Counted from the stretch's first letter, positions 11,307 to 38,340 are shown. The stretch: 64,000 bases of DNA from an uncultured Clostridia bacterium (GCA_934101145.1 CAKOPZ010000004.1:11652-75651); one strand, 5' to 3'. The notes: generated from the sequence alone by a model not told the origin. Numbers and translations are program-made.

Positions 11307-11341
11307 TATATACTAGGAAATTTCTCATTTCCTAGTATATA
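11307..11341. repeat. Perfect 15-bp-arm palindrome TATATACTAGGAAAT-ttctc-ATTTCCTAGTATATA
   Basis: Read directly from the sequence. The arms contain the TAGGAAAT / ATTTCCTA termini shared by the three peptide cassettes. Confidence 0.8.
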
Positions 11342-11411
11342 AAAATGTTATTGCCTTTGAGATTTTCTCCTTTTAGTCGAAAACTCAAATAGGCTTTGAA
11401 CAAAGGGCGAC

Positions 11412-25049: not shown

Positions 25050-25874
25050 ATGAATTTGAACGAGAAAATTAGAATTTTGGTGGCTGACGATAATAAGGAA
25101 TTTGGAGATACACTTGTAAGTTATTTAGAAAAAGAAGAAAACTTTGAGGTTGTTGGTATTGCAAGAGACGGCAATCAAGCTGTTGATGAAATAACAATGA
25201 TGAAGCCTGATATTGTTTTGCTTGATATCATTATGCCACATTTAGATGGGCTTGGTGTCTTAGAAAAATTAAATGAAAGAAATATAGAAAATAAACCTAT
25301 GTGTATTATTTTATCAGCGGTTGGACAAGATAAAATTACTCAAAGGGCAATTGATCTTGGTGCTCAATATTACATAGTTAAACCATTTGATATTCAAATT
25401 TTAGTAAAAAGAATAAAAGAACTAAAATATTATCAACCATCACAATATAAAAATAATTTTATTAGTAGAGAAATAAAAACACAATATATAGATATATCCC
25501 CAGAAGAGAAAAAGAATGAAGAAAACTTAGAAGCACTTGTTACAAATGTAATACATGAAGTTGGTGTACCAGCTCATATTAAAGGTTACCAATATTTAAG
25601 AGAAGCAATTATAATGGTAGTAAATAATATTGAAGTTATAAATCAAATAACAAAACAATTATATCCAGATATTGCTAAAAAATATGGAACAACTCCATCA
25701 AGAGTAGAAAGAGCAATACGTCATGCAATAGAAGTTGCATGGGGAAGAGGTCAAGCAGATGTTGTTGAAAGTATATTTGGATATACTGTTTCAGCATCAA
25801 AAGGCAAGCCAACAAATAGTGAATTTATAGCAATGATTGCTGATAAATTAAGACTAGAATTAAAAACAGCGTAA
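25050..25874 (+). CDS. spo0A: Sporulation master regulator Spo0A
   Basis: Receiver domain ([14 protein letters not shown]) plus a Spo0A-C domain ([12 protein letters not shown].., [15 protein letters not shown]). Confidence 0.92.
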
Positions 25875-25880
25875 ATAATA

Positions 25881-25906
25881 AACCCAGTACGATTTTGTAC
25901 CGGGTT
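25881..25906 (+). terminator. Hairpin after spo0A
   Basis: AACCCAGTAC-gatttt-GTACCGGGTT. There is no clear T-run, so efficiency is uncertain. Confidence 0.45.
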
Positions 25907-26213
25907 AAATTATATAGGGGTACACAAAAAAAGATGGTACAAAAGTGCCAGAACATAGACGCTCAACACCAAATTAATATTTAAAGCATATAATGTTCCC
26001 GAAAATAGTCAAACTAATTTTATGTGTAATCCTTTTAAAAATTGATACAATACCTACAATTATAACTTTAGCGATTGATATGATTGATAAACTTTTTTTG
26101 AAAGGGGAAAGTAAAATGAAAAAAATAAATTGCAAGAATGGTAAAGACCTTTGTATATATGGGGTTGCAAAATAAATATGTTTGATGAAGATAGGTAAAT
26201 AATTATAGATAAA

Positions 26214-26246: not shown

Positions 26247-26574
26247 TTATATAAAGAATAGATGATTAAGTTCATTTATTCTTATTTTTTATTTCTAGGA
26301 AATAGCATTTTAAAATGTATAATTTGTTATATTTTATAATTTCTTTAGAAATTTTGTGCTTTTTGTAATAAAAGAACTAATATGAAAACGTATTGATAAA
26401 AATTAGAGGTTATGATAAAGAAATGAATAAAAAATAATTGTAAAATTTGTGATATTTGCTTGAAAAATGTAAAAATTTATTGTATAGTAAATGTTGTAGG
26501 AAATGAGATAGCAGATATGTTGTGGCTACCACTTTCAATACTCGATACATTCGAGAGCAAGGAGGTGGTTGTTT

Positions 26575-26676
26575 ATGGGATTTATATTATTTTTAATATA
26601 TGCTTTGGGATTCTCCCTAACTGTAAACGTAGCCTTGTTGTGTATTATATACATAATGTGGACTAATAAACAATAA
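26575..26676 (+). CDS. 33-aa hydrophobic peptide MGFILFLIYALGFSLTVNVALLCIIYIMWTNKQ
   Basis: GGAGGTGG lies 6 nt upstream of the ATG. The position and architecture are conserved in copies B and C. It is too short for the ORF track. Confidence 0.5.
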   Translation: MGFILFLIYALGFSLTVNVALLCIIYIMWTNKQ

Positions 26677-26761
26677 AAAACAACACATTCTGCTTTAGTC
26701 GGTTGGAATGTGTTGTTACAACAATTTATATGGTAGCCACATTCTGTGACTCTCATTTTCT
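26672..26761 (-). ncRNA. Predicted ~90-nt antisense RNA of cassette A
   Basis: The start is inferred ~7 nt after the minus-strand TATAAT. The end is the 26679-26717 hairpin, which is followed by a U-run only on the minus strand. Confidence 0.4.
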
Positions 26762-26958
26762 ATCTTTATTATACACAGCTTTTCCATTTTTGTCAAATGG
26801 ATTTTTTTTATTTTTTTACGAAAATTTTTAGTTCATAAAATTGACAAAGAAAAAATTTTCTACTACAATCAATGCAATAAACATATAGAGGTAAATGCAA
26901 TGAATATTTATTGCATTAGTTATTTTTTAAGAAACAAGAGTTTCACATAAAATTCAAT

Positions 26959-27144
26959 ACAACACCATCTCGTGTAGAAAGAGCAATACGTCATGCAATA
27001 GAGGTTGCATGGGGAAGGGGCCAAGCAGATGTTGTTGAAAGTATATTTGGATATACCGTTTCTGCCAGCAAAGGAAAGCCAACAAATAGCGAATTCATTG
27101 CGATGATAGCTGATAAATTAAGACTTGAATTAAAAACAGCGTAA
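26959..27144 (+). pseudogene. Detached duplicate of the last 62 codons of spo0A
   Basis: It translates to exactly the same 62 aa as 25689-25874, with 21 nt differences in 17 codons, all synonymous. The homology continues through the terminator to 27186. Confidence 0.9.
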
Positions 27145-27325
27145 ATAATAAACCCAGTGCGATTTTGTACTGGGTTAAATTATATAAATGTAAAATATTG
27201 GATTATTACACTAGATAAATAAGTAAAAATATACTATACTATTAAGCATAGGAAATGAGAATAAGCAGATGTGGGTGCTACCACTTTACATACGCAGTTT
27301 ATGCTGTGAGAATGGAGGTGGTGCT

Positions 27326-27436
27326 ATGGAAATATTATTAATTCAATTAATATATCTATTATTCTTCGGATTAATAGGAGTTACTATCATAGCAGTTGCC
27401 TTAATCATAACTTTGGTTATTATTTTGAGCAAATAA
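27326..27436 (+). CDS. 36-aa hydrophobic peptide MEILLIQLIYLLFFGLIGVTIIAVALIITLVIILSK
   Basis: GGAGGTGG SD 6 nt upstream of the ATG. It is a close paralog of the copy C peptide (shared IYLL.FGLI...II..ALII.LVIILSK). Confidence 0.55.
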   Translation: MEILLIQLIYLLFFGLIGVTIIAVALIITLVIILSK

Positions 27437-27522
27437 AAAAACACCACATTATGCCCTGCCAAGCTATGTGGTGTTAAACATATTATATATGGTAGCACAC
27501 ATTTCTGTGGCTTTCATTTCCT
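27432..27522 (-). ncRNA. Predicted ~90-nt antisense RNA of cassette B
   Basis: Consensus minus-strand promoter. AACACCACAT/ATGTGGTGTT hairpin plus a U7 run on the minus strand. Confidence 0.45.
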
Positions 27523-27564
27523 ATAATTATTATACATAGATTAAACAGATTTGTCAAACAAAAA

Positions 27565-37674: not shown

Positions 37675-37842
37675 AAAGCATTACAAATAAAAGGCTATTC
37701 TATTAGTTTTGTATACTGATATTACTATCAGGTTTTTGCTAATATTTATGGCAATAACCTAAATGCCAGGAAACCATCCGCCGAATCTTTCGATAAGTTT
37801 CCATCCTCGTCAACACATATATTTTGTGTCCAGGCGCTTTTT
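37675..37842 (-). ncRNA. glmS ribozyme
   Basis: The minus strand reads AGCGCCTGGAC...GACGAGGATGGAAACTTATCGAAAGATTCGGCGGATGGTTTCCTGGC, matching the conserved glmS ribozyme core directly upstream of glmS. Confidence 0.85.
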
Positions 37843-38084
37843 ATTTATAAATTATCCTCCTTTCAAAAAGTGCATTTGCAAAACTTCTCTAGTTATGTCA
37901 TTATATTACTATAGATTCAAAATTGTGTCAAATTGATTAATGAATAAACTGGCAAAAACTTGTTCTTGAGTATTGATTTTTATATTCTTACATGATATAC
38001 TAGTTCTTGTAGGAAATGAGAATAAGCAGATGTGGTTTGCCACTTTTAATCCACAACTTATGTTGTGAGTGAGGAGGTGGTGCT

Positions 38085-38195
38085 ATGATAGAAGCAGTTT
38101 TATTAGAAATAATATATCTACTTTCATTTGGCTTAATTGCCGAAACTATTATAGTGTTTGCCTTAATTATACTGGTTATAATTTTAAGCAAATAA
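38085..38195 (+). CDS. 36-aa hydrophobic peptide MIEAVLLEIIYLLSFGLIAETIIVFALIILVIILSK
   Basis: GGAGGTGG SD 6 nt upstream. Paralog of the copy B peptide. Confidence 0.55.
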   Translation: MIEAVLLEIIYLLSFGLIAETIIVFALIILVIILSK

Positions 38196-38283
38196 AATAA
38201 AAAAAACACATCTGTACTTGCCCGGTTAGATGTGTTTTTTACATATTCAGTGGTAAACCACGTTTGTGGATTCTCTATTTCCT
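38196..38283 (-). ncRNA. Predicted antisense RNA of cassette C
   Basis: Minus-strand promoter at 38318-38290. The AAACACATCT/AGATGTGTTT hairpin is flanked by A and T runs, so it can terminate in both directions. Confidence 0.4.
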
Positions 38284-38340
38284 ACTTTTATTATAATCAA
38301 TTGTGTTCAAAAAGTCAATAAAAAAGGAGAAAATTTTGAA

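Follow-up and report, generated by a model that had tools for sequence, protein, structure and literature searches.

In this study, we analyzed a stretch of 64,000 nt from an uncultured Clostridia bacterium (GCA_934101145.1, CAKOPZ010000004.1:11652-75651), hereafter called the window, in which a unit of ~270 nt, organized like a type I toxin-antitoxin (TA) locus, is present three times, always on the plus strand: copy A (26497-26762), copy B (27249-27523) and copy C (38010-38284). Copies A and B sit between spo0A and the suf genes, and copy C sits between the glmS ribozyme/glmS and uvrC. The first-pass annotation had flagged copy B as 27249-27524; the unit itself was confirmed and its end was corrected to 27523. 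All three copies have the same order of parts, including a weak sigma-A-type promoter, a leader, a small hairpin, a Shine-Dalgarno (SD) sequence, an ATG, an open reading frame (ORF) of 33 or 36 codons for nearly all hydrophobic residues, a hairpin right behind the stop codon, an inverted and imperfect copy of the leader, and a promoter on the minus strand. The leaders begin with TAGGAAATGAG, and the SD (GGAGGTGGT) is very strong and lies 3-5 nt ahead of the ATG. The sense promoters have 9-10 of 12 consensus matches, and the antisense promoters match TTGACA-17-TATAAT at 12/12 (A), 12/12 (B) and 11/12 (C) positions. The features of the three copies are as follows.

Copy B, 27212-27240, plus strand: weak sense (toxin) promoter-like site, TAGATA-17-TATACT (9/12 matches)
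Copy B, 27249-27283, plus strand: opening ~35 nt of the predicted toxin mRNA, which form the 5' arm of the long-range helix (repeat search, fold, duplex and co-variation)
Copy B, 27279-27287, plus strand: cis anti-SD block UACCACUUU, whose predicted partner is GAGGUGGUG at 27315-27323 (minimum free energy (MFE) and centroid folds)
Copy B, 27293-27308, plus strand: small hairpin of the leader, downstream of the anti-SD block and ahead of the SD (folds; RNAalifold pairs)
Copy B, 27314-27322, plus strand: SD, GGAGGTGGT
Copy B, 27326-27436, plus strand: ORF for a hydrophobic peptide of 36 aa, MEILLIQLIYLLFFGLIGVTIIAVALIITLVIILSK, a putative toxin (homologues, codon-position constraint)
Copy B, 27442-27473: hairpin CACCACAT...ATGTGGTG, with A7 on the left as the U7 tract of the antisense RNA and only TT on the right
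Copy B, 27490-27523, plus strand: 3' arm; read from the minus strand, this segment forms the 5' part of the predicted antisense RNA, including its own small hairpin
Copy B, 27433-27523, minus strand: predicted antisense (antitoxin) RNA of ~90 nt, a 5' hairpin followed by a terminator, with putative ends (promoter, fold of -26.3 kcal/mol, U7)
Copy B, 27529-27557, minus strand: consensus antisense promoter, TTGACA-17-TATAAT (12/12 matches)
Copy A, 26460-26796, plus strand: whole module with sense promoter 26460-26488, 5' arm 26497-26531, SD 26561-26569, ORF for 33 aa 26575-26676, hairpin 26679-26717, 3' arm 26731-26762 and antisense promoter 26768-26796 (minus strand)
Copy C, 37973-38318, plus strand: whole module with sense promoter 37973-38001, 5' arm 38010-38043, SD 38073-38081, ORF for 36 aa 38085-38195, bidirectional hairpin 38207-38235, 3' arm 38250-38284 and antisense promoter 38290-38318 (minus strand)

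The predicted sense RNA would be ~275 nt long, from TAGGAAAT... to ...CATTTCCTA, and the predicted antisense RNA, of ~90 nt, would start at ...TAGGAAAT on the minus strand.

To place the three copies in a wider setting, related units were collected in two ways. A pattern scan of genomes (one genome per species) gave at least 119 loci, ~105 of them genuine, and 96 distinct units from metagenome-assembled genomes (MAGs). A second scan, run on metagenomes without a constraint on the outer leader, added ~45 more distinct units (141 in all), and a metagenome scan for leaders with a nucleotide other than G at position 3 gave no matches. Among the matches listed, all genuine loci of the genome scan belong to MAGs of uncultured gut Clostridia (human, rabbit, goat, chicken and roe deer), and several MAGs have at least two loci. 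The ~140 related units follow one layout: weak sense promoter, leader, small hairpin, SD (GGAGGUGGU), hydrophobic ORF of 33-39 aa, a hairpin serving the antisense RNA, inverted leader and near-consensus antisense promoter. The sense promoters of the family are the weaker ones (TTGnnn with TATAGT, TATATT or TATACT). The SD is invariant in the alignment, but the search pattern itself included GAGGTGGTG.

Of the 96 genome units, 94 have an intact ORF, which encodes almost only I, L, V, F and A. Differences between units fall mainly on codon positions 3 (3322) and 1 (2991), with 1209 at position 2. Two peptide subtypes could be distinguished, ...TINVALL..I.WTNKE and ...TIIxxALII..VIILSK. A protein search with an artificially extended ORF of 55 aa returned 33 unnamed metagenomic proteins, whose N-terminal 'extensions' are in differing frames; this implies that the leader is non-coding and that the true product is the 36-aa peptide. 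The chromosomal positions are also conserved, as 12 loci lie just downstream of spo0A and five adjoin glmS or uvrC. Unit B (window 27208-27559) is 94.6% identical over 355 nt to the unit of locus L116, compared with only ~76% for the spo0A proteins and ~80% for flanking DNA in the closest genomes, which points to either a very strong constraint on the whole unit or lateral exchange.

Several further observations concern the family. In three divergent units on ENA metagenome contigs (L120, L122 and L121), the stop codon is shifted and the ORF enters the terminator hairpin (...ILSKEKTHL, ...LSENKKTHL); their leaders start with AAGAAAATGAG or CAAGAAATGGAG, and the 3' arm is changed to match. An intact unit is present on two predicted viral contigs of IMG/VR (L124 and L125). 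Disrupted units were seen in genomes as well: in L093 and L115 the unit breaks off or is interrupted past codon ~25, and L011 is without the start region. Directly before the sense -35 TTG, within 40 nt upstream, there is a conserved AAAAaTTT.tT.TgTTcgC block (window 26436-26462 for copy A and 37943-37975 for copy C), and in 34 of 92 units GTTCGC precedes the -35 by exactly 6 nt. This block may be an UP element, a regulator site or both. A LexA-box-like sequence (GAACAAATGTTA) lies in the promoter spacer of four units (L002, L010, L039 and L068).

In type I systems the antisense gene has a promoter and a terminator of its own. For the units described here these are sequence predictions: TTGACA or TTGACT with TATAAT is present in 93/96 units, the hairpin with a U-tract in 88/95, and the predicted overlap with the sense RNA in cis covers at least the hairpin. 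In those 88 units, an A-run on the left side of the hairpin supplies the antisense RNA with a U-tract (6 or more of 8 nt), whereas a U-tract in the sense direction was found in just 26/95 units, and 33/95 have three T or fewer. Thus, the hairpin is chiefly an antisense terminator, and the many hairpins that lack a sense U-tract imply that sense transcripts would read through into the 3' arm. On this basis, the transcripts of copies A and B should pass the hairpin; at copy C, where it appears to be a bidirectional terminator, only a fraction of transcripts would reach the arm. Exonucleases acting from the 3' end would presumably shorten a read-through transcript as far as the base of the closing helix described below.

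It had been proposed in the first-pass annotation that the first ~35 nt of the sense RNA are complementary to the 3' flank in every copy, and that the whole mRNA can close on itself as in hok. The complementarity is borne out in all three copies. An inverted-repeat search found the arms of copy B as two halves (19 nt at 84% and 18 nt at 83%), and RNAduplex gave -38.1 (A), -40.6 (B) and -48.8 kcal/mol (C) for the 5' arm with the 3' arm, against an average of ~-14 kcal/mol for 1000 shuffles (z of -8.2, -8.0 and -11.2, respectively). When ~2770 other 46-nt stretches of the window were used, at most one reached the observed duplex value for any copy, and the best of them (-35 to -41 kcal/mol) are probably the 3' arms of sister copies. 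Folding of the full unit B gave an MFE of -88.1 kcal/mol with the two ends paired (z of -6.08; 0/200 shuffles). Across the family, 127 of 141 whole-unit MFE structures contain 20 or more pairs between the arms, and nucleotide 1 takes part in a pair in 139 of the 141.

Whole-unit RNAalifold retrieved no more than the outer 9 bp of the closing helix, as the inner part is misaligned by indels. Co-variation was scored by anchored pair counts and by a test of cognate against non-cognate arms in place of the whole-unit alignment fold. The inner block is GCTACC, GTTACC, TTGCC, TTTCC or TTTTGCC, and it is identical in both arms of a given unit. Counted from the invariant CC:GG, Watson-Crick swaps occur as A-U 10, G-C 21 and U-A 2, then as C-G 6 and U-A 35, and then as G-C 25 and U-A 10. 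The outer helix shows compensation in the distant unit L121, in which CAAGAAATGGAG pairs with TTCATTTCTTG, and in the GTGGTTTTGCC subfamily an extra base is present in both arms. Cognate arms pair with a mean of -38.0 kcal/mol, compared with -32.9 kcal/mol for non-cognate arms (median rank of the cognate arm 6.5 of 44; permutation p ~5e-5).

A further line of evidence is a strand asymmetry. The arms are ~75-80% matched, and the mismatches are mostly G.U wobbles in the sense strand only. In 94 of 96 units, the arm duplex of the sense RNA is the more stable one (-39.1 vs -30.2 kcal/mol for the other strand), and transitions between the arms leave a G.U pair in the sense RNA 138 times, compared with 31 times for the opposite strand. 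The direction of wobbles is the same in an independent metagenomic subfamily. The small hairpin within the 3' arm, used as a control for mutational bias, has no strand bias, which counts against a simple mutational account of the wobbles. Taken together, the co-variation of the arms and the wobbles confined to the sense strand argue for a 5'-3' helix in a read-through toxin mRNA, and the proposed closure of the sense RNA is thus supported in silico by co-variation, cognate specificity, wobble direction and whole-unit folds.

Two other explanations of the arms should be weighed against this evidence. First, the mRNA might simply end at the hairpin, the 3' arm being only the 5' part of the antisense RNA and the resemblance of the two 5' ends reflecting a shared element, such as a protein or RNase site or an initial transcribed sequence. 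The sense U-tract in 26/95 units, including copy C, and the near identity of the first 11 nt in both RNAs are in line with it. A constraint on a shared element, however, predicts identity and not a tolerance of G.U pairs on one strand (138 vs 31; 94/96). Furthermore, changes in the middle of the leader (GCAGAU, as against ACAAAC at the antisense 5' end) abolish the local hairpin of the antisense type and yet keep the pairing with the 3' arm, and 33/95 hairpins are essentially without a sense U-tract. We regard this explanation as rather unlikely.

Second, the repeats might work at the DNA level, as the ends of a miniature inverted-repeat transposable element or of an invertible, phase-variable segment. 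Inverted repeats of ~35 bp around ~200 bp, several copies per genome, and the fact that an inversion would put the ORF under the strong promoter would all be compatible with such an element. Nevertheless, the repeats are too imperfect and their mismatches obey the wobble rules of RNA, conserved promoters lie outside them, target-site duplications are absent at the unit ends, and the ORF is under coding constraint. A strong-type promoter is found 3' of 93/96 units, with only a handful of TTGACT/TATAAT-like hexamers on the sense side, although orientation was not scored directly, and a recombinase was not seen beside the copies in the window. This very improbable reading was rejected on account of the imperfect, wobble-type repeats, the external promoters, the missing duplication and the constrained ORF.

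We next consider the ribosome-binding site. It had been suggested that the leader can hide the SD in cis, and this agrees with the folds: for each of the three leaders, both the MFE and the centroid structure contain the pairing of UACCACUUU with GAGGUGGUG, through a block that comes after the 5' arm. Within this block CCAC is nearly invariant in the family, and the pairs of the small leader hairpin (RNAalifold columns 62-66/76-80) show compensatory changes. The leader block CCACYU is predicted to be paired with the SD in every modelled state, with a mean unpaired probability of the SD core of 0.16 in the full unit and 0.07 in the unit truncated at the hairpin, with the 3' untranslated region (UTR) blocked, or in the leader alone. 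This implies that the message is predicted to be silent once the SD has been made. If anything, release of the leader from the 3' arm would tighten SD occlusion in these models, a small effect on which we do not lean. Since the SD is predicted to be paired with or without the 3' arm, inhibition of translation through the closure itself, proposed by analogy with hok, is no more than a possibility.

Two related claims hold in part. GCTACCA is indeed in both arms of copies A and B, as the proposed CUACCA of both RNAs requires, but in copy C and most relatives the block is TTTGCCA, GTTACC or TTTCCA (matching in both arms of a given unit), and only CCA(C) is conserved. Competition of the 3' end for the leader block that pairs with the SD is possible in the subset of units whose 3' arm extends over CCAC (3' arm GTGG...).

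In about a third of full-length folds, the partner of the SD switches to an invariant GCCUUA block inside the ORF. The corresponding GCCTT(A), encoding Ala-Leu, lies at 27396-27402 (B), 26633-26638 (A) and 38160-38165 (C), or alignment columns 183-187. Although codon usage is AT-rich, its synonymous sites show essentially no variation across the 44 representatives, and RNAalifold pairs it with GAGGU of the SD. It may represent a second, internal anti-SD.

The two RNAs resemble each other at their 5' ends. Over ~35 nt they are near-identical (TAGGAAATGAG... in the mRNA vs TAGGAAATGAA.../TAGAAAATGAG... in the antisense RNA), and the first 11 nt are almost the same. Thus, the earlier remark that the antisense RNA begins with nearly the sequence of the mRNA is correct, and the mirrored leaders follow from the geometry of the start sites, since the predicted antisense start coincides with the outer end of this helix arm on the 3' side. 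The predicted antisense RNA consists of a 5' hairpin and then the terminator, and is the perfect complement of the mRNA hairpin and 3' arm. Its 5' part forms a small hairpin of its own with co-variation (CCGC/GCGG in L018 and L084, ATACA/TGTAT in L005).

It was also proposed that the antisense RNA could titrate the start region by means of its anti-SD-like block. An action of this kind is known from par/Fst and SprA1, and would mean here that the antisense 5' domain acts in trans on the initiation region via the CUACCA-like anti-SD, the shared hairpin being the first contact. The organization fits, in that the promoters are convergent, the hairpin is common to both RNAs, and the predicted antisense RNA lies 3' of the ORF without overlapping it (families as reviewed in PMC7472228 and PMC8594479), and ACCAC or CCA of the antisense RNA can form 5-8 bp with GGUGGU. 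In RNAduplex runs on 43 representatives, however, the antisense 5' part paired with the mRNA 5' region no better than shuffles did (mean z of -0.47). The arms cease to resemble each other after ...CCA, and the C(U/C)U extension needed for complete pairing with the SD is missing from the antisense copy; moreover, the CCA block is partly inside the RNA's own hairpin, and the repeats are inverted rather than direct. The proposed titration of the start region was abandoned on these grounds, and a par- or SprA1-like mode of action appears improbable.

Considering all these data, we regard it as reasonably likely that the units form a new type I TA-like family, in which an end closure of the mRNA like that of hok and par is joined to a Gram-positive-style antitoxin RNA encoded on the 3' side. 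The weak promoter would provide a low level of mRNA for a membrane-type peptide of 33-39 aa, and the near-consensus convergent promoter would provide abundant antisense RNA of ~90 nt that ends at the hairpin just past the stop codon. In the many units whose hairpin has no sense U-tract, sense transcripts would run on into the 3' arm, which would form ~29 bp with the initial ~35 nt of the mRNA, the terminal 5' nucleotide among them, and bury both ends. Pairing of CCAC(U/C)U, directly 3' of the 5' arm, with the SD would mean that the message is made in a translationally silent form. The antisense RNA would then act in steps that we propose with decreasing confidence. The first, and the likeliest of them, is that it would bind the 3' UTR and displace the leader of the mRNA from the 3' arm. 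Less certainly, the resulting duplex of ~90 bp would be a substrate of RNase III, and the opened 5' end would be exposed to 5'-end-dependent decay. Least certain is that the freed leader would keep or tighten SD occlusion. What the analysis shows in silico is the anatomy of the units, the conservation of this anatomy, the co-variation of the arms and the strand asymmetry; the ends of the transcripts, the toxicity of the peptide and the outcome of antisense binding are inferred.

A more specific and tentative version of this model, which we consider possible but somewhat doubtful, is based on leader mimicry. As the antitoxin 5' end is a near copy of the mRNA leader, it might compete with the leader for the 3' arm by strand exchange and open the closed mRNA, and the freed leader (GUGG...CCACYU) might go to the SD or into a local hairpin. 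To our knowledge, such strand-exchange logic has not been described for any type I system. If true, a single interaction at the far 3' end would decide both how stable and how translatable the message is, and the unit would be a natural and portable RNA switch.

Several points weigh against the TA-like model. Its weakest link is whether the sense RNA reaches the 3' arm, as the sense 3' end is a prediction. In the subfamily of copy C, which has a good sense U-tract (26/95 units), much of the mRNA may stop before the arm, and yet, despite this U-tract, it is the subfamily with the strongest arm complementarity. The strong antisense promoter just past the 3' arm could also block read-through. The contigs carrying the ORF in Logan and ENA are genomic and not transcripts, and neither RNA was seen there as a transcript. 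The folds do not show an effect of antisense binding on translation, as the SD is predicted to be paired in all four states; an on/off switch at the SD was rejected because no convincing switch was found. With regard to the wobbles, a C-to-T mutation bias of the plus strand would predict the same direction, and the small hairpin is an indirect control. In addition, the units are mutually related, and the counts given above are not independent events.

The toxicity of the peptide, finally, is an assumption from its size and hydrophobicity, and an alternative is that the ORF encodes a small membrane protein of an ordinary kind, the expression of which is adjusted by the structured leader and a 3' antisense RNA. 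The peptides do not have the charged C-terminal tail of many type I toxins, and the units occupy conserved chromosomal sites, such as the 12 beside spo0A. On the other hand, the units have the hallmarks of type I loci: more than one diverged copy in a genome, a peptide of 33-39 aa that is extremely hydrophobic and lies behind an SD predicted to be silenced, a consensus antisense promoter facing a weak sense promoter, and occasional carriage on viral contigs. We give this alternative little likelihood and prefer the TA-like reading.

Other features of the window deserve mention. Between copies A and B lies a second, ~90% identical copy of the last ~60 codons of spo0A together with its terminator (26960-27187, cf. 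25690-25917); the true spo0A is at 25050-25874, and the differences between the two are mostly synonymous. The L104 unit is likewise adjoined by a mere 50-aa fragment of Spo0A. These two cases suggest that the TA units and the 3' end of spo0A were duplicated or exchanged together. A strong promoter-like site (TTGACA-17-TACAAT, 11/12 matches) is present at 26841-26869 on the plus strand, between the antisense promoter of copy A and the spo0A fragment; a hairpin (GCAATAAA...TTTATTGC) lies behind it, with no obvious downstream gene. Directly upstream of the sense promoter of copy C, on the opposite strand, is the glmS ribozyme (37691-37849, minus strand; Rfam RF00234, 91 bits), the sole match in the window at the gathering threshold of Rfam. 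A perfect palindrome made of the two outer-helix arms of the TA unit (ATATACTAGGAAAT-TTCTC-ATTTCCTAGTATAT, with the exact 11-nt CTCATTTCCTA) was found at 11310-11345; it has T- and A-runs on its flanks and folds with -22.6 kcal/mol on either strand. A similar palindrome, flanked by TTGACA/TGTCAA, is located around 6073 in L076. Palindromes of this type could be collapsed units or terminators that reuse the motif.

The analysis describes a whole family in uncultured gut Clostridia; its loci number well over 100, with several copies in a genome, and give a clean comparative signal for the 5'-3' helix. Type I TA loci are difficult to detect, and hardly any are known beyond a few model Firmicutes and enterobacteria. 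If the transcripts prove to be those inferred here, the target of the antitoxin would be the mRNA's own closing strand, which offers a testable model of how binding to the 3' UTR could control a distant 5' end and ribosome-binding site. The compact design of ~275 nt may be of use in synthetic RNA regulation, and the family also flags unannotated small ORFs beside spo0A and glmS/uvrC in many MAGs.

Comparison with known systems was based on database searches and on reviews. Rfam, searched at the gathering threshold over the window and with E-values up to 10 over the locus on both strands, gave only glmS elsewhere and chance hits. For the three peptides, Pfam, NCBIfam and PADLOC returned nothing, and PHROGs gave only matches with E of at least 0.2. 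The reviews of type I systems consulted contain no such layout and no antitoxin whose target also pairs with the 5' end of the toxin mRNA, and the initial impression that no described TA family matches is upheld within these searches and reviews. The only clostridial entries in these reviews are TxpA-, Ldr- and Fst-like matches in a few species, plus the systems of C. difficile (PMC6563280).

In hok/sok of plasmid R1 and AapA1/IsoA1 of Helicobacter, the extreme 5' end of the mRNA pairs with the 3' end, the SD is sequestered, and the message is stable and silent (PMC9841398, PMC8594479). The units described here are similar in that the full-length mRNA is predicted to be closed end to end with a hidden SD, and this fold-back is supported by both the folds and the comparative data. 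In those systems, however, the antisense RNA is encoded inside the mRNA and targets the 5' or ORF-proximal region (within the 5' leader, at the mok start region, in the case of Hok), and trimming of the 3' end activates the message, whereas here the antisense gene is 3' of the ORF and the target would be the 3' arm of the closing helix. The peptides have no match to the Hok family of Pfam, and the hosts are Gram-positive.

In par (Fst/RNA II) of Enterococcus faecalis pAD1 and its relatives, a 5'-UH helix buries the mRNA 5' end and the stem of 5'-SL hides the SD (PMC7472228). Convergent promoters, a shared hairpin, an antisense RNA clear of the ORF, a buried 5' end and a hidden SD are common to par and, by prediction, to the units, although the partner of the 5' end lies beyond the hairpin in our units. 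The direct repeats of par, DRa and DRb, make the 5' regions of its two RNAs complementary; direct repeats of this type are absent from the units, whose repeats are inverted and whose 5' regions are alike. The shared terminator of par is bidirectional, which is true of copy C and not of copies A and B, and in most units the hairpin is unidirectional. The PXXXG motif and the charged tail of Fst are missing as well, since the listed peptides contain no proline and end in ..ILSK or ..WTNKE. Membership in par/Fst was rejected because of the inverted repeats, the lack of both peptide features and the trans complementarity at the level of shuffles.

An antitoxin RNA on the 3' side of the toxin mRNA is known from bsrG/SR4 and txpA/RatA of Bacillus subtilis and from sprA1/SprA1as and sprG/SprF of Staphylococcus aureus (PMC8594479). 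Most of these antitoxins overlap the ORF or, like SprA1as, have a separate trans domain, and none has been described with the partner of the 5' end as its target. The position of SprA1as, on the 3' side without ORF overlap, corresponds to that seen here, but complementarity to the start region is not significant in our units. Searches of protein-family databases revealed no similarity of the peptides to toxins of the txpA, bsrG or spr type. In bsrG/SR4, binding at the 3' end promotes decay and also tightens occlusion of the distant SD. This pair is the closest functional analogy to the action proposed here.

The type I systems of Clostridioides difficile (CD2517.1/RCd8 and relatives) have toxins of 50-53 aa with lysine-rich C-termini and an extensive overlap with the antitoxin genes (PMC6563280). 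They resemble our units in their clostridial hosts, convergent overlapping genes and unannotated small hydrophobic toxins, and differ in that mirrored leaders have not been described for them and there is no sequence relation. The peptides of 33-39 aa are well within the size of small (<60 aa) hydrophobic membrane-type products that is typical of type I toxins. On the features that could be tested, the units are not members of the hok, Fst, SprA1, TxpA/BsrG or C. difficile families. They appear to represent a previously undescribed module, which combines the burial of mRNA ends known from hok, AapA1 and par with the 3'-side antitoxin RNA known from Gram-positive bacteria.

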